Source: a virus (lineage: Duplodnaviria > Heunggongvirae > Uroviricota > Caudoviricetes). From it: 64,000 nucleotides of DNA. The translations under genes were made by a program, and so were the position numbers. Position 1 is the first letter of the stretch, and each line of letters starts with the position of its first letter. The notes below the pieces were generated by a model. It was given only the letters and a program-made list of their open reading frames with translations. It had not been told where the DNA came from and did not search any database. Below, piece by piece: positions 29,603 through 57,829 of this stretch. Location of the stretch: the IMG/VR virus record IMGVR_UViG_3300048573_000453, positions 32,421 to 96,420 of that record. The stretch is one strand, 5' to 3'.

Positions 29603-29747
29603 AAAATTTCTTATTTAGAACCCCAAGTAGCTTAAAACGTTCAATCATTGCGACAATCATTGTGAAGTAAGAACTAGTAAAGATGTCGGTTCTTTTTTAT
29701 GTTCTGAGTTGTTCCAAATGAAAAACTCGTCAATGTTTTCGCCGTTG
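29567..29747. repeat. direct repeat copy 2 (~180 bp including a 9-bp indel)
   Basis: Matches 28574..28738; overlaps the 3' end of CDS 29657..30262. Confidence 0.85.
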
Positions 29748-30262
29748 TAAATTATTATTTCGCCTGTTTCATCCCTTAACCAATCTTCAAGAGCATCGCT
29801 CCAAATTCTGATTACAAATTTCCTAATTAGGCTTTCTGTTGCCATCTTTTTCCAGAGAGCTTTGCCGCCATCAAACTGTTCAAAATCAGGGACAATTGTA
29901 AAACCGTATCTAGCAAGAAGAACATACATTGCCATTGCAAGGTTTCTGTTTCTAAACTTCGGTTGATTGTACACTGTATGAACTTGTAATTCATTATCTA
30001 CTGGCACCCCCGCTCTATTATCAAAGCGCACAGATAGAACTATTTCATTCCTTTCTGCACCTTTAGACTTGATGGTGACCGTAGCACCACCTTTGTCATT
30101 AGAAAGCCAAAATCTAAATCGATCTTCACCCTGTTCAAGTTCCCCAAGAAAATGATTTTCTCGTTCCAAACCCGCATCTGAAGGTGTAGCAATGTTGCTG
30201 ATAGATGGCGGTTGAAACTGTCCAAGTTGATAAGGCATTTCAAACAACGTTGATAATTTCAT
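29657..30262 (-). CDS. paralog family B protein (full length, 201 aa)
   Basis: ORF; homologous to 25486..26124, 35558..35965 and the fragments at 28652 and 33579. Confidence 0.55.
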   Translation of the reverse strand: MKLSTLFEMPYQLGQFQPPSISNIATPSDAGLERENHFLGELEQGEDRFRFWLSNDKGGATVTIKSKGAERNEIVLSVRFDNRAGVPVDNELQVHTVYNQPKFRNRNLAMAMYVLLARYGFTIVPDFEQFDGGKALWKKMATESLIRKFVIRIWSDALEDWLRDETGEIIIYNGENIDEFFIWNNSEHKKEPTSLLVLTSQ

Positions 30263-30933: not shown

Positions 30934-30947
30934 AAAAATACTTTGAT

Positions 30948-31031
30948 TGGATGCCCCAGGTATCGAACCTGGCATGTTATAAAAACGCGGAGTGTTCAAT
31001 TCCGGCCACCTCCTTAGTGGTATAGACATCC
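30948..31031 (-). tRNA. tRNA-like, type II with long variable region; anticodon ambiguous (9-nt loop ATTGAACAC)
   Basis: Acceptor GGATGTC/GGCATCC; D-arm TACC..GGTG; T-arm CCAGG-TTCGATA-CCTGG; weak 4-bp anticodon stem. Confidence 0.4.
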
Positions 31032-31044
31032 AATTTTAAAACCC

Positions 31045-31095
31045 CTTTGTCCGGCCAGCTGGATTCGAACCAGCGACTTATTGCTTAGCTTACCA
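31045..31095 (-). other. tRNA 3'-half-like segment (T-arm GCTGG-TTCGAAT-CCAGC + acceptor 3' strand TGGCCGG)
   Basis: Base-pairs over 13 nt with the 5'-half-like segment at 31510..31556. Confidence 0.35.
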
Positions 31096-31401
31096 CTATA
31101 GCTTTCGCTACTGAGAATTTTTATCTTCCCGCGCGTGGTCTGAGCTTTGTCTTCATCTGTTCTAGATGGTAGCCGTCAAGTCTCTACACGTTCCTTTTTC
31201 AAGGCTTCGCTCGGCGTTGGCATAAAAATACTGTCCTCTGGATTAAATGTATTTATGCAGCGTTCGCCGAATTTGACTACATTCACAATAAACATCCCTA
31301 TTTATGTGCCCCATTAGAACTGTTTAACATATTTGCTTCTTATTCATTGTCGTAGAATTATTGTAACTCAAATTATTCTATCTAGAATAATAAATTAAAA
31401 T

Positions 31402-31494
31402 GTACTTTGCTCGCCAGAGTGGATTCGAACCACCATTGACTCCGTTACGGTACTACGCTTTAGAAGAGCGCTCCGGTACTGGCGAGCAAAGTAC
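31402..31494 (-). other. inverted-repeat-bounded tRNA-like element (16-bp IR GTACTTTGCTCGCCAG)
   Basis: Contains T-arm GGTGG-TTCGAAT-CCACT and an anticodon-like hairpin GCGCT-CTTCTAA-AGCGT (UCU); no canonical D-arm. Confidence 0.35.
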
Positions 31495-31509
31495 AATCAG
31501 GTAAAAGGT

Positions 31510-31556
31510 TAAATACTCAAAATTACTCTATCCATCTGAGTTATGGCCGGACAAAG
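31510..31556 (-). other. tRNA 5'-half-like segment (acceptor 5' strand CCGGCCA + D-arm ACTC-AGATGGAT-AGAGT)
   Basis: 13-bp inverted repeat with 31045..31057 (CTTTGTCCGGCCA / TGGCCGGACAAAG). Confidence 0.35.
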
Positions 31557-31594
31557 AGGTCTTTCTAATCATATACAAATTTCCAAAACATAAA

Positions 31595-31708
31595 TGGTAG
31601 GCCGTGTTGGACTCGAACCAACGACCAAAGGATTATTCTTCGGCTTCTTTTGTTATTATCCAACAGAATGCCTGAGTCCTCTGCTCTAACCAACTGAGCT
31701 AACGGCCC
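31595..31708 (-). tRNA. tRNA with expanded anticodon region (114 nt; ~38 extra nt between anticodon-stem halves)
   Basis: Acceptor GGGCCGT/ACGGCCT + A + CCA; D-arm GCTC-AGTTGGTT-AGAGC; T-arm GTTGG-TTCGAGT-CCAAC; stem halves GAGGA ... TCCTT are 44 nt apart. Confidence 0.55.
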
Positions 31709-31890
31709 ACACTTTTTGCATTCTCCAATTATACCATACTTTTCTATCTTTACAAATTTATTTTTGTTTTACTAAAGAATAAACAGTTCGATTTCTTCTT
31801 CAGAAGGAGTTTTTCTGCCAAGAATCTTGTAAAAAGCTTTTGAATTTTCTATCCATTCCGGGGAAGCAAATGCAAAATTTACGTTTCTAT

Positions 31891-33578: not shown

Positions 33579-33690
33579 CTATTTTGATGTAAGCACTAAT
33601 AACGTTGTCGCTTCATTGTGCTGGGAAATATCTTTCCAAATTTGGTCATCATCGAGATTTTCAGCATTATAATTACGCGGTTCTATAAAA
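33579..33690 (-). pseudogene. C-terminal fragment of a family-B paralog displaced by the IS insertion
   Basis: Encodes ...NYNAENLDDDQIWKDISQHNEATTLLVLTSK*; compare ...IYNGENIDEFFIWNNSEHKKEPTSLLVLTSQ*; no start codon. Confidence 0.6.
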
Positions 33691-34908
33691 ATCTATAAAA
33701 CTCACTAAACGCTTCACAGAAGCTGCCTTTGGAAGAACTTCCTTAGGTCTTACTGCCCCTCCACGTCTGTACTCGGTTAATTCAGCCGAGGTCATGTCAT
33801 AAAGGTCCTTTACACCTTCATTTAAAATATTGATAGCCGCATTTAAGTCGCGATCATGGCTTGAGCCGCATATTGGGCATGTCCATTCTCTTATGGATAA
33901 ATCCATCGTTTCCATTTTATGGCCGCAGCAAGAACACGTCTTACTCGATGGGAACCAAGTATCTATCTTATGAAATGTGCGGCCATACCACCTACTTTTG
34001 TATTCCAGCATTGAAATAAAAGTGGACCAACTTGCATCAAGTATGGATTTTGCCAAACTATGATTCTTAACCATGTTTTTAACTTTTAGAGTTTCAGTAC
34101 AAATAACATCGTAATTTTCTATTAACCAACTCGACAGGTTATGGTAAATGAACTTGCGCTGATTTACAATATCCCTATGGATTTTCGCAACTTTGATTTT
34201 CTGTTTATTGTACCTTTTAGAACCCTTTGTTTTTCTGCTTAAATGCTGCTGTGACCGTTTTAGTTTAGATTGGTTTTCTCTGAACCATCTTGGATTGGAA
34301 ATTTGCGTACCATCACTTAAGATGAGCAAGTTTTTCAATCCGAGATCAATACCGATTGAGCGACCAGTATTTTGTTTCAATTCTATTTCTTCTTCAACTA
34401 AAATTGAAACAAAATATTGCCCACTTGGATTTTTAGAAATTGTGACAGATTTTGGTTTACCAGTAAAAGGTCTATCTATGATTACTTTTACTGGAGACAT
34501 TTTTGGAAATTTAATAAAACCTGCTTTAATTTGTTCAAATTTTTCTAAATGCATTGAAGCCGCAGGAATCCTAAATGATTCATTGCCACCCCGCTTTTTA
34601 AATTTTGGTCTTCCCAGTTTAGCTTTACGGTTTTTAGAGAAAAATTGCTTTTTGGTTTCATCAAAATCGATTCGTTTTTGCTGCAAGGCATAACTAATAG
34701 CATCTTTAAGCCATGGAAAGTTCTCATCATCTTTCAAAATCTTCTCATTCATTGGTCGGTTTGGGCCTTCTTTTGAAAAAGAATTAAAATTGGCAACTAA
34801 CTGATTCCAAATGAAGCGAACACATCCAAAATTTTGGAGAAGAAATTTCTCTTGCTTATTATTAGGATATATTCGGTACTTAAAAGCCTTAAGAACTGTA
34901 TTTGTCAT
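33673..34908 (-). CDS. tnpB: TnpB (OrfB) RNA-guided-nuclease-family protein of an IS607/IS200-605-type element
   Basis: N-terminal KYRIYPNNKQEKFLLQNFGCVRFIWN; zinc finger CSCCGH...CPICG; RuvC-III DRDLNAAINI. Confidence 0.85.
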   Translation of the reverse strand: MTNTVLKAFKYRIYPNNKQEKFLLQNFGCVRFIWNQLVANFNSFSKEGPNRPMNEKILKDDENFPWLKDAISYALQQKRIDFDETKKQFFSKNRKAKLGRPKFKKRGGNESFRIPAASMHLEKFEQIKAGFIKFPKMSPVKVIIDRPFTGKPKSVTISKNPSGQYFVSILVEEEIELKQNTGRSIGIDLGLKNLLILSDGTQISNPRWFRENQSKLKRSQQHLSRKTKGSKRYNKQKIKVAKIHRDIVNQRKFIYHNLSSWLIENYDVICTETLKVKNMVKNHSLAKSILDASWSTFISMLEYKSRWYGRTFHKIDTWFPSSKTCSCCGHKMETMDLSIREWTCPICGSSHDRDLNAAINILNEGVKDLYDMTSAELTEYRRGGAVRPKEVLPKAASVKRLVSFIDFYRTA

Positions 34909-35501
34909 TTTTCTGAATCGTTAGCTAATTCTTGAACCAATTTTTCCGTATTCCGTTTGCTGCGGCGCTGTCCATAAATTCTTGCGCAAAAAGATGTAAT
35001 GACGGACACAAAATCCTGAACAATGTCTTCTTTATCTGACTCTACATTATTCACTACATCGATTTCAATGCCATTAGAATTTAATAGCTGTTCAATATAA
35101 TTGAAACCGAATCTAGTCAGCCGATCCTTATGTTCAACTACTAATTTAGTAAAATCCTGTTCCTTAAGAAGCTTTTCCAGTTTTGGCCTCTTATCATTTA
35201 GTCCAGATCCAAATTCTGTAACGACTTTAGCAACTTTGTAACCTCTAGCGTTACAATATGAAATCAACCTTTCGGATTGAGTCTCAAGATTAGATTTATT
35301 TGCAGTCGAAGAAACACGACAATAAATCACTACGCGTTCTTCTTCCTTGGCCTTTATACCAAGGAATTTGTTGTAAGTTTCAATATCAACATAATTCATT
35401 GAACCAATTTTATGAAATTGTATTTTTCCAGCCTTCTTCCAATTCCACAGCGTCATCCTGGTTACACCAAGATCTGCAGCAAATTTTTTAAGTTTAATCA
35501 T
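34905..35501 (-). CDS. tnpA: IS607-type serine recombinase transposase TnpA (MerR-like HTH + resolvase catalytic domain)
   Basis: VIYCRVSSTANKSNLETQ catalytic Ser region; ...VTEFGSGLNDKRPKLEKLL...VVEHKDRLTRF. Confidence 0.8.
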   Translation of the reverse strand: MIKLKKFAADLGVTRMTLWNWKKAGKIQFHKIGSMNYVDIETYNKFLGIKAKEEERVVIYCRVSSTANKSNLETQSERLISYCNARGYKVAKVVTEFGSGLNDKRPKLEKLLKEQDFTKLVVEHKDRLTRFGFNYIEQLLNSNGIEIDVVNNVESDKEDIVQDFVSVITSFCARIYGQRRSKRNTEKLVQELANDSEK

Positions 35502-35557: not shown

Positions 35558-35965
35558 TTAAATATAATATTGGGTAAAATCTGAAACAATAGTAAATCCG
35601 TATCGCGCCAAAACTACGTAAAGCGCCATTGCTAATCCCTGGGTTTGAAACTTTGCGTGAGTATAAACAGATTCAACTTGCAGCTCATTTTCTACTGGAA
35701 GGTTTGAACGGTTATTAAAACGCACTTTAGTTATAGTTAATTGACGAGGTTGGCCAATATCGTCTACGCCTGAAGTAGTAACTTCGGCATAAAATTTACC
35801 CTTATTTAGCCAAAAATGGTATTCAGTTCCACCTTTTTCAAGGGTTCCCAAAAAATCATTCATACGACGCAAATTTTCAAGAGATGGATAATTGTCCATC
35901 TTGATAATGGGCCTCGCATCTTGGTCCATATGATATGGGCCCTCAAAAAGTTCTTGGGTTTTCAT
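35558..35965 (-). CDS. paralog family B protein, 3'-truncated by the IS insertion (start at ATG 35965)
   Basis: MKTQELFEGPYHM... aligns to MKLSTLFEMPYQL...; ends ...SDFTQYYI* where intact paralogs continue. Confidence 0.55.
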   Translation of the reverse strand: MKTQELFEGPYHMDQDARPIIKMDNYPSLENLRRMNDFLGTLEKGGTEYHFWLNKGKFYAEVTTSGVDDIGQPRQLTITKVRFNNRSNLPVENELQVESVYTHAKFQTQGLAMALYVVLARYGFTIVSDFTQYYI

Positions 35966-36078
35966 GTCAATTTTTATTTTAGGTCTTGATTTAACTGCCA
36001 GTGCGTCGGTTTCCCAACGACAGTTTAGCAAACTGCTCCCTTAACCAACTTAACCACTCGTGCAAAAATCCATTTTTT

Positions 36079-41955: not shown

Positions 41956-42759
41956 TTAAATTGTGAAAACGTTTGATGGATGGAAGCCGTTATTTTTAAA
42001 TTTTTCATTAGGGTACCCGACAGGGTTACACACTAGTTGAGTGCGCCCTATTGTCCCATTATAAGCATCATGTGTATGACCGAAAAACCAATAAGCTGGC
42101 TGATGCTTTAAAATGAAAGCATCTAAGTCGCTTGCGAATGCCCCATTTAATGGACTATCACCATATTTTGCATGGACTGCTTTGTAGGTAGGTAGGTGAT
42201 GAGTGACAATTACGGTCTTTGAATTGTCTTTGCCCTTCATTAATGTTGACAATTTTCGCTTACAACTTGCGTGCATTTTTTGTGCTGTGTCCGGAGTAAA
42301 AGCTCCACTTCCATCAAAAATATAAGCATGATCATTCATCTGAAAAGCCGCTGCGGACTTCATTTCTTCTGGGGACTTTTTGTAGTCGGTCCACATAGTG
42401 GCAGCATGAAAAGTTACTTCGTCAATGACCACAGTTTTTACTGTGTTTCCTGCAATGGTCAAATTGCTGTTTGGCAAATTAAGTTTTAAAATGCCTTCTG
42501 TTAACGAAATGTCAAAGCCATAATGTTCGTGATTTCCCAAGACATAAATGACATGTTTAAAACGTGAACAAAGGCTATCTACAAATCCGGCCAATAAGTT
42601 TGCACGTCTAGCCGTCCCAATATCACCAGCAATAATAAGGACCGTTTCATGATCTGTAGGAAGCGCAGGAATTATCCTTGCAGCCTCGCGTCGAATCTCT
42701 TCAGGATCTTTAATGAACTCTAGGTGAATATCACTTAGTTCGCGAATCAATAAAGTCAT
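41956..42759 (-). CDS. calcineurin-like metallophosphoesterase
   Basis: AGDIGT ... GNHEHYG ... VTHHLP ... GHTHD motifs. Confidence 0.7.
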   Translation of the reverse strand: MTLLIRELSDIHLEFIKDPEEIRREAARIIPALPTDHETVLIIAGDIGTARRANLLAGFVDSLCSRFKHVIYVLGNHEHYGFDISLTEGILKLNLPNSNLTIAGNTVKTVVIDEVTFHAATMWTDYKKSPEEMKSAAAFQMNDHAYIFDGSGAFTPDTAQKMHASCKRKLSTLMKGKDNSKTVIVTHHLPTYKAVHAKYGDSPLNGAFASDLDAFILKHQPAYWFFGHTHDAYNGTIGRTQLVCNPVGYPNEKFKNNGFHPSNVFTI

Positions 42760-43016
42760 AGCGTTTTATACCTATTAAAAATTCTTCGCAACGCATAAGA
42801 ACGGATTATTGAAACTACAGTGTAAAAAATAACCAGCAGAATGTTTTGGCTTGTAGAAATTTCCCATCCCAGTAATGGGAAAATAACCAAATTCGCAATG
42901 AATGAAACTACTAGCCCGACAATGACATTGGTTAATGTCTCAACAATTGATCCACGCCTACTTTGCATTATGAGCTTCCCATGTAATTTTTCGTTTCCAA
43001 TAGATTTTAGGCCCAA
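42756..43016 (-). CDS. small membrane protein (86 aa)
   Basis: Hydrophobic ORF. Confidence 0.45.
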   Translation of the reverse strand: MGLKSIGNEKLHGKLIMQSRRGSIVETLTNVIVGLVVSFIANLVIFPLLGWEISTSQNILLVIFYTVVSIIRSYALRRIFNRYKTL

Positions 43017-43167
43017 ATAATTTTACATGCCACATTACACCGTTTCCAACTTGCTCGGCATCAACAAAGAAGCCGAGCTTTGAATGGCGCTTAAGACGTT
43101 TTAGCGTCTTAAGCATTTGCGGATGCGTCATTGTATCCTGGGCAAAGAGATAAGTTTCTTGGGTCAT
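42958..43167 (-). CDS. hypothetical basic protein (69 aa)
   Basis: ORF. Confidence 0.35.
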   Translation of the reverse strand: MTQETYLFAQDTMTHPQMLKTLKRLKRHSKLGFFVDAEQVGNGVMWHVKLFGPKIYWKRKITWEAHNAK

Positions 43168-43388
43168 GACGCAACAATCTTCATTGCTGAAAGTGCAACT
43201 GCAAAACCAACTAGCCAGGCTACGCCAATTTGTGCAAGATATTCAGGCTTTACTTCGGGATCATATTCTGCAATTTGCATTGCCCACCATCCAGCAGTAA
43301 AAATACCAAAGACTGTAGAAAGTGTAAAAGCCATTTCATCTGTCATTTTATTCTCCAATTGGTTCAACAAATTTATCATCACGAACAT
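43164..43388 (-). CDS. small membrane protein (74 aa)
   Basis: Hydrophobic ORF. Confidence 0.4.
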   Translation of the reverse strand: MFVMINLLNQLENKMTDEMAFTLSTVFGIFTAGWWAMQIAEYDPEVKPEYLAQIGVAWLVGFAVALSAMKIVAS

Positions 43389-44667
43389 GATTATACACTG
43401 GGAATCGCAGAGAGAAAAACTTTGCGTCTTTCGCCTTAGACATTTCTTGATAGGTAATCACCGCAGTTTGATGCTTATATTTTGAATCGAAATTCTCAGC
43501 GATATCAGCGCGAACTTCATCGCTGAAACCTGATCCGACATTACAGCGGAATTCACGACCATGCTCGTCTCGACCTTCGACTGTGATGCCACCACAAGTG
43601 CCCTGGAGACGCGACTTAGGCTTGCCTTGATACCAAGCAACGATACGCGCGTCAACATCATAAAAGCGCTTAATTTTGCACCAATCCATAGATCGGTCCC
43701 ACTGATAAACAGCATCCCAGTTCTTTAGGATTAAACCCTCTTGACCATGAACATCAATGACTTCGTTGCAGTACGCGACCATATCTGCATAACTTTTGAC
43801 TTCCCGCCCATTGGTGATAAGAATCTTTTTGCAACCTGCTTCGTCAATAATTTTTGAAAGAGCTATTCGATTTTGACGCATGGTAATCTTTGTAGATTGG
43901 GCCAGCCAATCATTCAAAGGCATCAAGAAAAAAGCATGGAATCGCAAATTGCCTTTTGCAACATCATTACCTGCTTTTTTGGAATTCATGGTTTCAGTGA
44001 AGTCTGAAGCAAATGCTTCGCCGTCAAGGACAAAGTCATAACCGACATTATCACGCATCTTCTTCATGTCTTCATCAAAGATGCCTTCAAGGTGTTCAGA
44101 AATTTTTCCGCTACGAGCACGGTATTCTACAGGCTGATTGAGGCGAACAAATGCGATGGACCTGTTACCGTCCATTTTCCAATCTCCATGGGCGGGGTAC
44201 GTTACCTTCTCAAGGAACTCTTCTGGGCTATCACACTTGTCTGCAAGCATAATTTCGAATACTGGAATAATTTCCTGCTTCCATGCAGAATTAGCGGTAT
44301 CTGCAGAAAATCCTGCTTTCAAATCCTTGTCAAAAATTCGCGCAATATATTCTTGCGCATGTTCGGGAAATTTTGAAATAGATTGCGTGACTGCTGCTCG
44401 AGCCGCATCTCCAGTAATTTGACGCGTTGCAAGCTTATTAAGCACTTCAAAAAAGTCTGAATAATTTACATCAGACATCTTGACATCTTGTGCAATTGAA
44501 GGCATCTCAAACTTCTTAACGCCGAATACCTGATAGGGATCCAAAGCTGCACAAATCAATTGTTTTGCAATTTCGTCAGCTTTTTCGAGTGCTTCCTTAA
44601 TCACTTTTTTGGTTCCTGAACCAGAAGCAGTTTCACACGCTTTAATAACTTCTATAAAATTACTCAT
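43348..44667 (-). CDS. ATP-dependent DNA ligase (T4 gp30-like)
   Basis: KMDGNR nucleotidyltransferase motif I (KxDGxR); size; N-terminal region resembles the T4 ligase start. Confidence 0.6.
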   Translation of the reverse strand: MSNFIEVIKACETASGSGTKKVIKEALEKADEIAKQLICAALDPYQVFGVKKFEMPSIAQDVKMSDVNYSDFFEVLNKLATRQITGDAARAAVTQSISKFPEHAQEYIARIFDKDLKAGFSADTANSAWKQEIIPVFEIMLADKCDSPEEFLEKVTYPAHGDWKMDGNRSIAFVRLNQPVEYRARSGKISEHLEGIFDEDMKKMRDNVGYDFVLDGEAFASDFTETMNSKKAGNDVAKGNLRFHAFFLMPLNDWLAQSTKITMRQNRIALSKIIDEAGCKKILITNGREVKSYADMVAYCNEVIDVHGQEGLILKNWDAVYQWDRSMDWCKIKRFYDVDARIVAWYQGKPKSRLQGTCGGITVEGRDEHGREFRCNVGSGFSDEVRADIAENFDSKYKHQTAVITYQEMSKAKDAKFFSLRFPVYNHVRDDKFVEPIGE

Positions 44668-44712
44668 TTTAATTCCTTATTTTTGGTTGCATAATCGATT
44701 ATACCGCAAAAA
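44668..44712 (-). promoter_or_regulatory. P1-related copy 4 upstream of the DNA ligase
   Basis: TTTTTGCGGTATAATCGATTATGCAACCAAAAATAAGGAATTAAAATG. Confidence 0.4.
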
Positions 44713-44765
44713 TAAACGCTTTGAAAGAAGACATAAATAATATTTTGCAAAAATAAAAGGAATTT

Positions 44766-45182
44766 ATGGCTAAAAATCAAGCACCGACCTTGTGCGTTGA
44801 AGATACGGGGGAAGCATCTTACGTGTCCCTCTTGGAATATAAAAGGGAACATTATCTCTGCGTTATTGATAGGATTTCATCTGATGAAATTACGGCATAC
44901 GTGCTAGATTATGCCGAAGCTGAAAATATACCAATTCAACAATTTCTAAGCGTAGCAAATCTTTGGTTTTATGGAGCCTCTGATGATCACCCGCTATCTG
45001 TAGAGCTCGCAGCAAAAGGCCTTACAGACGTGCTTTCGCCAATCTATAAGACCTTTGATGCTAACTATGTTTCACGTATAATTGGCACTACTTTTAATCA
45101 TGCTAATACGGAATCGAAAATAAAACGAAGAAAAGCAATTCCTGTAGTCGAAGGAACGCCAGTTCGACTTAAAAAGCGGTGA
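44766..45182 (+). CDS. hypothetical protein (138 aa), plus strand
   Basis: AAAGGAATTT RBS; late-promoter-like CATAAATAAT upstream; divergent from the ligase gene. Confidence 0.5.
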   Translation: MAKNQAPTLCVEDTGEASYVSLLEYKREHYLCVIDRISSDEITAYVLDYAEAENIPIQQFLSVANLWFYGASDDHPLSVELAAKGLTDVLSPIYKTFDANYVSRIIGTTFNHANTESKIKRRKAIPVVEGTPVRLKKR

Positions 45183-46194
45183 GATTGTAAAGACGCTTTA
45201 GGTGTGACAACTTAAACATATTAAATTGGTCAGTCAATTCTTGAGTCTTTTCCTTCAAAACTGATTTAGCAACAGCTTCATCTACTTCTTCGAAACGGGC
45301 ATCAAGATAGGCCAAAGCCCCTTCAATTGTTTCTTTTCCCTCTTTTACAGAGCGCAGATAATCAGAATTAGGTCGTGGGAATATTAGCGCTCCGGTTCTT
45401 GAAATCTCAACAATCTGTTCAACAATGCGAATTGCATGGCTCAACGCTTTCCAATCTGCATGCTGGCCCTCAAAGCTTTTAACGCGTTCCCCGTATGAAT
45501 CTAGCGTATTCAACAGTGAACTGTAAACTTGCCACCAAGTATTAGACATCAAAAACTTTGGAGAAATAACTTGAATGCCAGGAGCGGTTTCAATTCCTCC
45601 TTTAGCATTGAGAATTTCTATACGTGTGACGTTTGGAAACTTGAGGATTTTGTCAATCAGCTCAGAGGACTCAGGAGAATCAAGCCGGGCTTTACGCATT
45701 ACTTCAGTCTCTGAACCAAAGTAATCTTTGATCGTATCGACAACCTTCTTCAATGAAGTGTATCGATCATTTTTAAGGCCGTAAGCTTTCGACTGCGAGA
45801 TAGCATAACCGACCATCTTCTTCACAGAATTGGTCATATAATGATCAACCATCTCCCTCATCATTTGAACTTCTGAAGGCTTAACACGTTCTGATTCGCC
45901 ATTAAGAACGGCAAATGCAACTTCCAATGCGTAAGTTTGCCCGTTAAAGAAATCATCAAAAAATACCTGAAGCGGCAAGTATTCGGTTTCTGATTCCCCA
46001 GCCTGCACTTTATCGCTCTGTGAACGCCCTTCGGGCTTTTCCTTGCGATTAGTTACCTTCTTATTAAGCAGCAGATCATCAAGCTTTGGAAGAACTACGG
46101 CCTTATAGTCATAGTCAGATTCTGGTCCGAAAGTTCCATAAAGACGAGAGCCACTAGGTACCGTAAACAGTGTCGTTTCTTTTTCAGCTTTCAT
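45169..46194 (-). CDS. nucleotidyltransferase-fold protein
   Basis: PSGSRLYGTFGPESDYDY (GS-x9-DxD) motif. Confidence 0.45.
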   Translation of the reverse strand: MKAEKETTLFTVPSGSRLYGTFGPESDYDYKAVVLPKLDDLLLNKKVTNRKEKPEGRSQSDKVQAGESETEYLPLQVFFDDFFNGQTYALEVAFAVLNGESERVKPSEVQMMREMVDHYMTNSVKKMVGYAISQSKAYGLKNDRYTSLKKVVDTIKDYFGSETEVMRKARLDSPESSELIDKILKFPNVTRIEILNAKGGIETAPGIQVISPKFLMSNTWWQVYSSLLNTLDSYGERVKSFEGQHADWKALSHAIRIVEQIVEISRTGALIFPRPNSDYLRSVKEGKETIEGALAYLDARFEEVDEAVAKSVLKEKTQELTDQFNMFKLSHLKRLYNLTAF

Positions 46195-47290
46195 TATTCA
46201 TCTCCTGTCGAATGGCAGTAATCATTGCCAAACTAATTTGGCGTCCAAGTTCTTTACCAGCAAAATTTGCTACGAGGTTGATTATATCAAGATTTGACGT
46301 GATTGAAGCGAATTTTCTCCAATCATGTGCTGAAAAAAGCAAGTTATTTTGTTGTATCGGCCAAAGTGCCGCCAAAACATTTAGGGCACAGTTTGCGTGC
46401 GTGCTAATAGCATTCGTAGAACGAGTCTTTACTAGAGCATAAACAACACCTTCTGCTGAATAGTCAGCAGAAGTAAAAATTTGCAAAGCATTTAAAGCAC
46501 CGTTAACATCATTTCCAAAAACCTTTGCTGCATTTGGCGCCATAACTGAAGAAAAAGTCGCAACTAAAATCTCACTCGTTTCCAAGTTACACTTACGTGC
46601 AGCTTCAAAATGTTTTTTCATTTCAAGAAGATGTGAACTACTTATATCCCCAAAAACATCTTTGAAAAAACGCACGTTCTGAAATACGCCAAGTTTGTAA
46701 AGAAGATCAACGAATCGGCCAAAGTCTGAACCATCGTCAAGGATGACTTTCTCAAACTCTTTTACAAATCGCTCTTTTGAAATGGTATCCATTTCACCAG
46801 ATTTAACAATCTGCTTTGACAATTCCATGGTTTCATCAGCAACAGAAAATTCAGAATAGCGAGCATAAAATCTAGCAAGTCGAACAACGCGCAAAGGATC
46901 TTCAGAAAATGCTAAAGATGTATGGCGAAGAATTTTTGCTTTGATGTCTTTCACGCCGCCATATGGATCAATGTATTCCCCGTTTACGGGGTTGAAAGCT
47001 ATCGAGTTGGTTGTAAAATCCCGACGCTTAAGGTCTGATTCGATTGTGACGTTTTCAGTCTCTACAGAAAATCCTGTATGACCAACACCAGCCTTTTGCT
47101 CAGTTCTAGCCAAAGCCCATTCATCCCCTGTTTCGGGATGGAGGAACACTGGAAATGATGCCCCAACTTGCTTAAAGCCGAGTCGAATCATTTCTTCAGT
47201 CGAAGACCCGACTACGACCCAATCAACATCCTTCGGCTCGCGCCCCATGAGTTGATCGCGAACGGCGCCTCCGACTTTATAAACATCCAT
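46184..47290 (-). CDS. cca: tRNA nucleotidyltransferase (CCA-adding enzyme), head domain plus body
   Basis: GGAVRD ... DVDW ... RRDFTTNS class II CCA/poly(A) polymerase motifs. Confidence 0.8.
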   Translation of the reverse strand: MDVYKVGGAVRDQLMGREPKDVDWVVVGSSTEEMIRLGFKQVGASFPVFLHPETGDEWALARTEQKAGVGHTGFSVETENVTIESDLKRRDFTTNSIAFNPVNGEYIDPYGGVKDIKAKILRHTSLAFSEDPLRVVRLARFYARYSEFSVADETMELSKQIVKSGEMDTISKERFVKEFEKVILDDGSDFGRFVDLLYKLGVFQNVRFFKDVFGDISSSHLLEMKKHFEAARKCNLETSEILVATFSSVMAPNAAKVFGNDVNGALNALQIFTSADYSAEGVVYALVKTRSTNAISTHANCALNVLAALWPIQQNNLLFSAHDWRKFASITSNLDIINLVANFAGKELGRQISLAMITAIRQEMNNES

Positions 47291-57025: not shown

Positions 57026-57829
57026 TCAAATTGATAGAAAGGGTATAGGAAACATCGAAGTGAGTCGCAAAGCCGAACAATCTGGAAGATACCCAATATC
57101 AAGTTCTGAAATTACTGAACGCTTAATAATCGGTGCATGATCCGGCCGATGCTTCTCTGGTATTTTAGAAAGTTGTTCCCGAGAAAGTCTCGAAATAACA
57201 TGTTGCCGTTTTACAAACGTGCCAGATTTAAAATGTAACGGTTCTAAATGCCATGGTTTCCCAATTTCCTGAAGCATGCGTTTTTTCTCTTCGCTGCAAA
57301 CACCGTGAAGCTGCTTACTTGAAAAGTGCGCTTGCGCTGCCATAGAAATGCTGTTCTTAATAGCGTCATTCTGTCGCCACAGGAAGTTTAGATATACATC
57401 TTTTGGCACGACATTCCAAACGCGCGCATCAAAAACGGGAATAGCATCAGCTTTTTCCGGAATGCGTTTACCCAATTCCTTTGCAAAATATGCGCTCGCC
57501 ATTCCAGCCATCACAGAACAAAGCTTTTGGTACTTTCCATCGTACCAGTATTGGCGAGTTTCAGTTTGGTCGTTAAACCAATACAAACTGATTTCATCTG
57601 ACTGTGTATATCCAAGTTCAGCATTTGTCTTTTCAACCAAATATTTGGTCGTATCAATCATAAGTCGGCTAAGGCGCAAATCATATGGTCGCTTCAAGCC
57701 TTTGGTAAATGTGTGAAACGCTTTGCCATCAAGGCGACACATCAACGGAAGCGTGGCATCACATTTTCTACCGGCTTCTGCCTGTTCATCAGATTTCAAA
57801 CGATCACCAAGTTTATCTTCTTTGTTCAT
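57026..57829 (-). CDS. Thg1-like protein (tRNA-His guanylyltransferase / 3'-5' polymerase family)
   Basis: CRLDGKAFHTF; KRPYDLRLSRLM; GYTQSDEISLYW matching Thg1 motifs. Confidence 0.75.
   Translation of the reverse strand: MNKEDKLGDRLKSDEQAEAGRKCDATLPLMCRLDGKAFHTFTKGLKRPYDLRLSRLMIDTTKYLVEKTNAELGYTQSDEISLYWFNDQTETRQYWYDGKYQKLCSVMAGMASAYFAKELGKRIPEKADAIPVFDARVWNVVPKDVYLNFLWRQNDAIKNSISMAAQAHFSSKQLHGVCSEEKKRMLQEIGKPWHLEPLHFKSGTFVKRQHVISRLSREQLSKIPEKHRPDHAPIIKRSVISELDIGYLPDCSALRLTSMFPIPFLSI

Follow-up and report, generated by a model that had tools for sequence, protein, structure and literature searches.

The locus lies on the minus strand of a 64,000-nucleotide stretch of phage DNA (the window) and holds a 114-nt tRNA gene with an interrupted anticodon loop, the first of several tRNA-like genes (Table 1). 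Read from 31708 to 31595, the minus strand gives GGGCCGU UA GCUC AGUUGGUUA GAGC A GAGGA for the 5' part, CUCA GGCAUUCUGUUGGAUAAUAACAAAAGAAGCCGAAGAA UAA for the anticodon loop region, and UCCUU UGGUC GUUGG UUCGAGU CCAAC ACGGCCU A CCA for the 3' part. The acceptor, D and T arms and the encoded CCA are all intact. The 5-bp anticodon stem GAGGA/UCCUU encloses 44 nt in place of the canonical 7-nt loop, and the loop CUCAUAA is restored only when a 37-nt insert is removed. Two marks of the gene's backbone, U72 and the trailer UUUAUGUUUUGG, are specific to the phage.

Table 1. Features of the interrupted tRNA gene and its surroundings (window coordinates)
Feature	Position	Strand	Remarks
Interrupted tRNA gene (CAU, tRNA-Ile2/Met type)	31595-31708	-	114 nt including encoded CCA; Rfam RF00005 and ARAGORN intron mode
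5' exon, 36 nt: acceptor 5' strand, D arm, GAGGA, loop CUCA	31673-31708	-	100% identical to L131 566-601
Insert, 37 nt, GGCAUUCUGUUGGAUAAUAACAAAAGAAGCCGAAGAA	31636-31672 (or 31637-31673, shifted by one A)	-	Absent from L131 and 18 uninterrupted homologues
Imperfect hairpin in insert, GGC-A-UUCU-G-UUG / 8-nt loop / CAA-A-AGAA-GCC	31642-31672	-	MFE fold
3' exon, 41 nt: loop UAA, UCCUU, variable loop UGGUC, T arm, acceptor 3' strand, A73, CCA	31595-31635	-	100% identical to L131
Sigma-70-type promoter-like site, TTGTAA-16-TATAAT, upstream TG (extended -10)	31728-31755	-	10/12 consensus matches
Second interrupted tRNA-like gene	31050-31549	-	5' CCGGCCAUAACUCAGAUGGAUAGAGU and 3' GUCGCUGGUUCGAAUCCAGCUGGCCGGA pair 7/7 as acceptor stem
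Group-I-like core in second interrupted gene	31140-31336		RF00028, 40.8 bits, below gathering score 50
Nested tRNA-like RNA	31405-31500	-	RF00005, 36.8 bits
86-nt "tRNA-Phe(GAA)"	30947-31032	-	ARAGORN
IS607-type pair (serine recombinase TnpA, TnpB)	33673-35501	-	Between two tRNA clusters
157-aa ORF adjoining the IS607-type pair	35558-36031		Truncated paralogue of 29657-30262
Nucleic-acid-end enzymes	41956-47290 and 57026-57829	-	Metallophosphoesterase, T4-type DNA ligase, RlaP, CCA-adding enzyme, Thg1-like 3'-5' polymerase

The Rfam tRNA model RF00005 matched the gene with 57.6 bits (E = 1.4e-10, gathering score 29) over the full model (1-71), and a 40-nt insertion was placed in the anticodon loop. 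At default settings no tRNA was called here by ARAGORN. In its intron mode (-i) a 77-nt tRNA with a 37-nt intron at 37/38 was reported as tRNA-Leu(CAG). A preliminary description of the locus had recognised the canonical acceptor, D and T arms, the CCA and the 44 nt between GAGGA and TCCTT, all of which the sequence and the Rfam score bear out; an intron-aware predictor, which it had proposed as a check, does find the tRNA. Its estimate of about 38 extra nucleotides holds as to the presence of extra sequence and is corrected to exactly 37 nt by the alignment described below. It had named a different canonical cloverleaf at the site, or decayed relatives of the gene, as evidence that would count against the idea; no alternative cloverleaf exists, and no decayed relatives were found.

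The gene was free of differences across independent JGI assemblies from six samples (L001/L174, L004, L008, L009, L175, L176), with full coverage in all of them except L009, which holds the first 22 nt only. Logan contig L007 is identical too and ends 13 nt short of the tRNA 3' end. The interrupted sequence is not an assembly artefact. As every copy is identical, population data are uninformative on the insert.

The borders of the insert were defined by an uninterrupted allele, which was found by scanning viral contigs for the T arm together with the acceptor 3' strand. Contig IMGVR_UViG_3300046714_000065 (L131) carries the insert-free copy GGGCCGUUAGCUCAGUUGGUUAGAGCAGAGGACUCAUAAUCCUUUGGUCGUUGGUUCGAGUCCAACACGGCCUACCA, an ordinary tRNA(CAU) according to ARAGORN, whose exons are identical to those of the window gene (76/76 nt). 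BLAST aligned L131 with the window in two blocks, 31673-31708 and 31591-31636, both at 100%, the second reaching 4 nt into the 3' flank. One A is common to both blocks, so the insert border is ambiguous by one base, and the last A of the 5' exon (CUCA) may belong to the insert instead. The insertion site thus falls between tRNA positions 34/35 or 35/36, inside CUC(A)...(A)UAA, and without the insert the exon join reads ...GAGGACUCA followed directly by UAAUCCUU... Besides the tRNA, no resemblance to the window was detected within 5 kb of the L131 copy, protein level included. L131 is an unrelated phage contig, and by this alignment the window gene is the intact allele plus exactly 37 inserted bases. 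Signs of a pseudogene are absent from the exons, which match the intact allele throughout and in which all four stems pair; the insert is the sole lesion, which still allows a loss of function.

On metagenome contigs the 3'-exon pattern matched 24 loci, none of which holds the insert. They comprise 18 uninterrupted tRNA(CAU) genes with flanks that look bacterial in nearly all cases, 5 attachment-site halves and 1 gene cut by the contig end. L131 and the 18 uninterrupted genes all read CUCAUAA, which indicates CAU as the ancestral anticodon. The closest E. coli matches of the insert-free sequence were genes annotated as tRNA-Ile (84-86% over 77/77 nt), so the gene is assigned to the tRNA-Ile2 type (CAU). 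Its body was found to be Ile2-like rather than Met-like, and it carries C4-G69 and C5-G68, which we take to be TilS determinants. The CAU anticodon of tRNA-Ile2 reads AUA after lysidine modification of C34. The anticodon CAG (Leu) suggested in the preliminary description has to be given up, since uninterrupted alleles read CAU and the body matches tRNA-Ile; the Leu reading arises only with cuts forced to 37/38, as in the intron mode of ARAGORN. The same text had rightly remarked that the variable arm would be atypically short for Leu: the variable loop is short, and the tRNA body is therefore not Leu-like. The comparison with homologous tRNAs that it had proposed succeeded in part, as uninterrupted copies were found and none with the insert.

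The insert was found to fold by itself, as the folding proposed earlier was meant to examine. Its MFE was -10.2 kcal/mol, compared with -3.1 +/- 1.8 kcal/mol for 1000 dinucleotide shuffles, 0.2% of which were as stable. The hairpin has 3+4+3 bp, every pair being Watson-Crick, so that a DNA palindrome accounts for it equally well. The fraction of the ensemble compatible with a cloverleaf was larger with the natural insert than with 99.6% of the shuffled inserts. The whole 114-nt RNA reached -40.7 kcal/mol (z = -3.76), and its MFE fold shows the same insert hairpin.

No second copy of the insert was found in the 64-kb window, and no other copy in viral contigs by exact and degenerate patterns. 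Neither the tRNA nor the reverse complement of the tRNA resembles it significantly. A repeat or mobile element was rejected for want of a second copy in the window, and a duplication or snap-back product because the insert resembles neither the tRNA, nor its reverse complement, nor the rest of the window. At E <= 1 the tRNA was the sole Rfam match across 31595-31708, and no family covered the insert. Diverged orthologues bearing the insert were not found by the viral-contig patterns or by the 3'-exon pattern on metagenome contigs. A synteny search with the upstream 187-aa protein gave 1235 homologues, the nearest of which (60-69% identity) are on short or non-syntenic contigs. A K-turn-like reading of GCC-GAAGA was discarded, as the opposite strand has CA and not GA and the motif is missing in other examples.

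The insert was compared with the known classes of tRNA introns. Group I self-splicing introns likewise occur in the anticodon loop of bacterial tRNAs, such as Azoarcus tRNA-Ile(CAU), the same isoacceptor, and cyanobacterial tRNA-Leu(UAA). They have a catalytic core P3-P9, the last base of their 5' exon is a U, which takes part in the G-U pair of P1, and that of the intron is a G; the smallest in tRNA genes are about 200 nt. The insert, in contrast, is far shorter at 37 nt and has no core; the exon base before it is C34 or A35, and its own last base is A in both registers. The group I model RF00028 gave no match over the insert at E <= 1, though the neighbouring gene does match. On grounds of size, core and splice-site bases a group I intron was rejected, a collapsed form included. 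The BHB introns of archaea and eukaryotes are, like the insert, short, non-catalytic and often hairpin-forming, and they are removed by an endonuclease and a ligase, the same kind of mechanism as proposed here. In a BHB, a 4-bp helix lies between two bulges of 3 nt each, an arrangement that fixes where both cuts fall. Searching exhaustively for a strict or relaxed version that would excise the insert at one of the three compatible cut pairs, CUC/AUAA, CUCA/UAA and CUCAG/AA, gave none, and a BHB intron was rejected for this reason. The insert further differs from that class in its site, which is not 37/38, in its bacterial or phage setting, and in that the roughly 84 kb of phage genome examined revealed no splicing endonuclease. 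Covariance models of self-cleaving ribozymes (hammerhead, twister, pistol, hatchet, HDV-like) gave no match over 31595-31708 at E <= 1. The earlier view of an intron-like insert in the anticodon loop of a genuine tRNA gene, too short for group I and removable only by an unknown activity, is upheld: Rfam and the L131 allele vouch for the tRNA, and the coreless 37 nt fit neither group I nor BHB.

The phage itself is novel; its best protein matches to isolated phages are below 47% identity and its DNA matches are tRNA pieces only. The genome measures at least 126 kb (longest contig 125.8 kb) with a GC content of 40%. Exon-identical host-type tRNAs and the match to Limnohabitans phage DC31 suggest freshwater Betaproteobacteria as hosts. 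AUA amounts to 10.3 per 1000 codons, so in a phage of this GC content a tRNA-Ile2, the AUA reader, would be useful. The promoter-like site ends 20 nt before the tRNA 5' end and is a consensus match only. The operon runs from the interrupted tRNA(CAU) through a second interrupted tRNA-like gene and an odd 86-nt tRNA to tRNA-Ser(UGA).

The second interrupted gene holds a group-I-like core and a nested tRNA-like RNA. Its halves are about 430 nt apart, and no clean anticodon arm could be rebuilt for it. The nested RNA sits on a 16-bp stem, has no D arm, and shows the loop CUUCUAA and a long variable arm. A free-standing, unannotated homologue with CCA and covarying stems was located in Limnohabitans phage DC31 (L161 2990-3065), and matches of 62-63 nt (87%) occur in Pseudomonas phages such as PAK_P2. 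The arrangement recalls the "tRNA inside a tRNA intron" of Lak phages. In the 86-nt tRNA the acceptor stem has 8 bp, the D arm is unusual and the variable region is long, and its sequence UGGCCGGA recurs at the 3' end of the neighbouring interrupted gene. In the IS607-type pair inserted further along, the genes of the recombinase and TnpB are called at different lengths in different assemblies. The families of ORFs next to the tRNA clusters were considered as nuclease or ligase candidates and dismissed; they form two unrelated paralogue groups, neither of which suggests such a function, and one is GNAT-like by eye on a single motif.

The phage encodes a CCA-adding enzyme, RlaP and a Thg1-like enzyme. 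Near the genes for these end-processing enzymes lie those of a Band-7 protein, a YqeY-like protein and an Acb1-family protein (the last from the L170 gene table). RlaP is an RNA-ligase-associated nucleotidyltransferase that acts in the repair of anticodon-loop damage (PMC12776372, PMC7824862). The ligase adjoining RlaP was rejected as an RNA ligase, its best structural relatives being T4-type DNA ligases. The examination of about 84 kb of the genome, which is at least 126 kb long, turned up neither an RNA ligase nor a polynucleotide kinase, an RtcB or a splicing endonuclease. Likewise, no EndA/Sen-family Pfam domain was present in the 50 window proteins scanned and the flanking 20 kb.

Viral contigs were searched with a pattern consisting of a common D arm, 25-55 extra nt and a T loop. 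It was matched by at least 79 distinct tRNA-like sequences with a near-perfect acceptor stem (6-7/7 pairs). Among the matches listed, insertion points were assigned where deleting a single segment gives back a canonical anticodon arm, and they are spread very unevenly: about 19 genes have the insert at 28/29, about 8 have it in the loop, 3 have it at 37/38, and a single, ambiguous one has it in the 3' stem strand or variable loop. The 28/29 group consists mostly of a conserved insert family of about 40-55 nt, composed of an A/U-rich lead, a hairpin with a UGUUYG-like loop and an ACAGCAA box; a smaller set ends in GUUACUU instead. The ACAGCAA-box family always lies between positions 28 and 29, in about 15-20 distinct phage tRNA genes of many isotypes among the matches listed (L051, L088, L101, L106, L113, L013, L047 and L091 among others). 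Its removal restores a perfect 5-bp stem and 7-nt loop, and no Rfam family matches it.

In tRNA(CAU)-like genes, unrelated inserts were found between CUC and AUAA at four loci (L159, 28 nt; L160, 30 nt; L030, 35 nt; L158, 51 nt), three of them simple hairpins. Control patterns revealed others after positions 31-33 (5 loci, 4 of which represent one family) and after position 36 (1 locus), and a single preferred site in tRNA(CAU) was therefore rejected. A 48-nt insert just 5' of CUCAUAA was observed at L163 5611-5731, L165 10164-10285 and L167 9782-9902. It forms a three-way junction, the outer helix of which pairs with loop bases C32-C34, and over the three sequences it keeps two hairpins by 4 compensatory pair changes while the exons diverge. 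Some phage tRNA insert families are clearly under selection. Some phages have 2-3 interrupted tRNAs per cluster. The comparison inserts share no sequence motif, fixed geometry or single site, and this heterogeneity means that they may not share one mechanism. No protein common to the surroundings of interrupted tRNAs was detected by tblastn of 173 window ORFs against 132 loci. Among 185,579 cellular genomes the CUC...AUAA pattern gave about one genuine case, the rest being chance matches and attachment-site partial duplications. In viral contigs it is common for a tRNA gene to be intact except for a short insert; in cellular genomes such genes are almost absent.

Two further arrangements were noted during this survey. 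On L160 (3684-4488) a GOLLD RNA (RF02032, 291 bits) is immediately followed by two interrupted tRNAs: a tRNA-Glu, whose 41-nt insert in the D loop is flanked by the 8-nt direct repeat TAGAGGAC, and the tRNA(CAU)-like gene with the 30-nt loop insert. A tRNA-like family of the form ACCCAAG...GAGACCAAAUAGUCCGUCGCAU...AUCCAGGGUCUUCAAAAGCUGGUUGAAAGUC...CCA occurs at L023, L027, L029, L043, L046, L050, L055, L061, L075, L076 and others. No single deletion gives it a normal anticodon arm, and its CCAG/CUGG complementarity suggests a pseudoknot.

In the literature on short non-group-I introns in phage tRNAs only one report was found, that on Lak megaphages, whose tRNA genes hold conserved "enigmatic introns" of 79-93 nt with no Rfam match, one of which contains a tRNA-like (T-arm-like) element (Devoto et al. 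2019, PMC6784885). As in the window gene, the arms are intact, the extra sequence is in the anticodon region and alleles exist with and without it. The two Lak introns examined (79 and 93 nt) are predicted at about 37/38 and include the T-arm-like piece, whereas the insert, a plain hairpin of 37 nt, lies at 34/35 or 35/36 and belongs to a phage of about 126 kb with a probably betaproteobacterial host. The gene has the features of an "enigmatic intron", a descriptive category without a defined mechanism. It is a real, precisely defined oddity, a variant within the poorly understood phenomenon of phage tRNA introns. A second likeness is to tRNA repair, both T4 Pnk/Rnl1 repair against PrrC and RlaP-assisted repair, in which the anticodon loop is likewise broken and re-sealed beside the wobble base. 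Repair restores a cut tRNA, whereas here inserted sequence would have to be removed, and we know of no phage anticodon-loop repair that does so.

The reading that we prefer, with a probability of about 0.45, is that the 37-nt insert is an intervening sequence excised from a tRNA(CAU) precursor. The phage would carry a copy of a bacterial tRNA-Ile2-type gene with a hairpin-forming insert just after the wobble base, at the head of a small tRNA operon with its own putative sigma-70-type promoter. The precursor would still fold as a cloverleaf, with the insert as a separate hairpin on the anticodon stem, and in this unspliced form it would be unable to decode. Two endonucleolytic cuts at the loop/insert borders (C34/A35, +/- one A) would then release the insert, and a ligase of the tRNA-repair type would re-join the exons to a 77-nt tRNA(CAU), which host TilS could convert to the AUA-reading lysidine form. 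A possible benefit is that the precursor might be immune to anticodon nucleases or to mischarging by MetRS. Since inserts of this kind recur often in phage tRNA genes and hardly ever in cellular ones, the activity is more likely phage-supplied or the RNA's own than a general host function. The excision, the enzymes involved and any benefit are what we infer from these data. In favour of excision we count the flawless exons, the exact insertion and the autonomous, non-interfering hairpin; the promoter-like site, the AUA usage, the phage-enriched class and the tRNA-repair toolkit; and the compensatory changes in L163/L165/L167, the several interrupted tRNAs per phage cluster and the Lak precedent (PMC6784885). 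Against it we count that no diverged relative of the insert was found, that about 84 kb yielded no RNA ligase, kinase, RtcB or endonuclease, that the comparison set is heterogeneous and that no protein is common to interrupted-tRNA loci.

A phage can do without its tRNA genes, and a copy that has lost its function could therefore be retained. It is conceivable, though we rather doubt it, that a recent DNA-level event put a 37-bp imperfect palindrome into such a gene, the RNA being made but useless and the decay of the exons not having begun for want of time. Aberrant site-specific recombination at the tRNA attachment site, break repair or the collapse of a larger element could have been the event. 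The existence of the identical uninterrupted allele L131 suits this explanation, as the insertion may then be recent. So does the use of the anticodon loop of the same tRNA as an integrase crossover point: five metagenome loci keep the 3' part only, starting at CUCAUAA (L133, L137, L146, L149) or UAUAA (L152), and cellular genomes L186, L187, L190, L197, L200, L209 and L212 have partial 5' copies ending in GACUC beside the full gene. These partial duplications resemble traces left by integrated elements and point to the tRNA(CAU) anticodon loop as a recombination hotspot. The phage inserts L158 and L166 hold T-arm-like tRNA pieces, as recombination scars would; the Watson-Crick pairing throughout the stem, the lack of splicing enzymes in the about 84 kb examined and the broken look of the neighbouring tRNA-like gene agree with a disabled gene as well. 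The precision and structure of the insert are less well accounted for in this way. The insertion is exact to the base, with neither loss nor duplication in the exons, and the dissimilarity of the insert to the tRNA, its reverse complement and the rest of the window speaks against an origin by snap-back synthesis or by duplication of nearby sequence. Few random 37-mers would have this much structure or disturb the cloverleaf this little, a simple collapsed group I intron is contradicted by the final base of the 5' exon, which is C or A and not U, and comparable inserts elsewhere are conserved with compensatory changes and occur several per cluster.

An unlikely alternative is that the unspliced tRNA-like RNA works as such, either by tying up a host anticodon nuclease, TilS or MetRS in the manner of a decoy or sponge, or as one of the stable tRNA-shaped RNAs long known from phage tRNA clusters. 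With its acceptor, D and T arms and CCA intact it could still be recognised by RNase P, CCA-adding enzymes and elbow-binding proteins; the phage invests in tRNA defence and repair, and the same operon has another non-canonical tRNA-like RNA, which is conserved in Pakpunaviruses. The exons, however, are those of a decoding tRNA down to the anticodon-loop bases, with no adaptation to another role, and the insert has neither conserved relatives nor a known target. Very improbable is an archaeal/eukaryal-type intron cut at 37/38, which would leave the loop CUCAGAA and a CAG (Leu) anticodon on an Ile-type body. The 37-nt intron of the tRNA-Leu(CAG) reported by ARAGORN -i has a length typical of such introns; against this stand the failure to find a BHB at the three cut pairs, the CAU of uninterrupted alleles, the short variable loop and tRNA-Ile-like body, the bacterial character of the host tRNA and promoter, and the lack of an EndA-like domain among the window proteins scanned.

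To our knowledge, all bacterial tRNA introns described so far are group I ribozymes, and the splicing of tRNAs by proteins is considered a feature of archaea and eukaryotes. Removal of the 37-nt insert, if it takes place, would require a third and so far unrecognised route of tRNA splicing in bacteria or their phages. We suggest, quite tentatively, that the gene is one instance of a widespread phage-specific tRNA maturation system, in which short structured inserts are removed by neither a group I ribozyme nor a BHB endonuclease. Such a system would have several insert families, including the ACAGCAA box at 28/29 and the three-way junction in tRNA(CAU), and removal could be the work of a novel class of small ribozyme or of a nuclease/ligase encoded by the phage. 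Carrying an insert might keep a phage tRNA in an inert precursor state, in which it would be spared attack by host anticodon nucleases or mischarging. If true, it would be essentially undescribed, with only the Lak "enigmatic introns" on record. If the insert is not removed, the locus would be a neat case of a tRNA gene killed by one precise insertion, and a warning that high-scoring tRNA matches can be dead. The survey of viral contigs suggests that phages commonly carry interrupted tRNA genes and that standard annotation overlooks them, which would bear on the interpretation of phage tRNA repertoires, of codon adaptation and of the arms race with host defences that centres on tRNAs.
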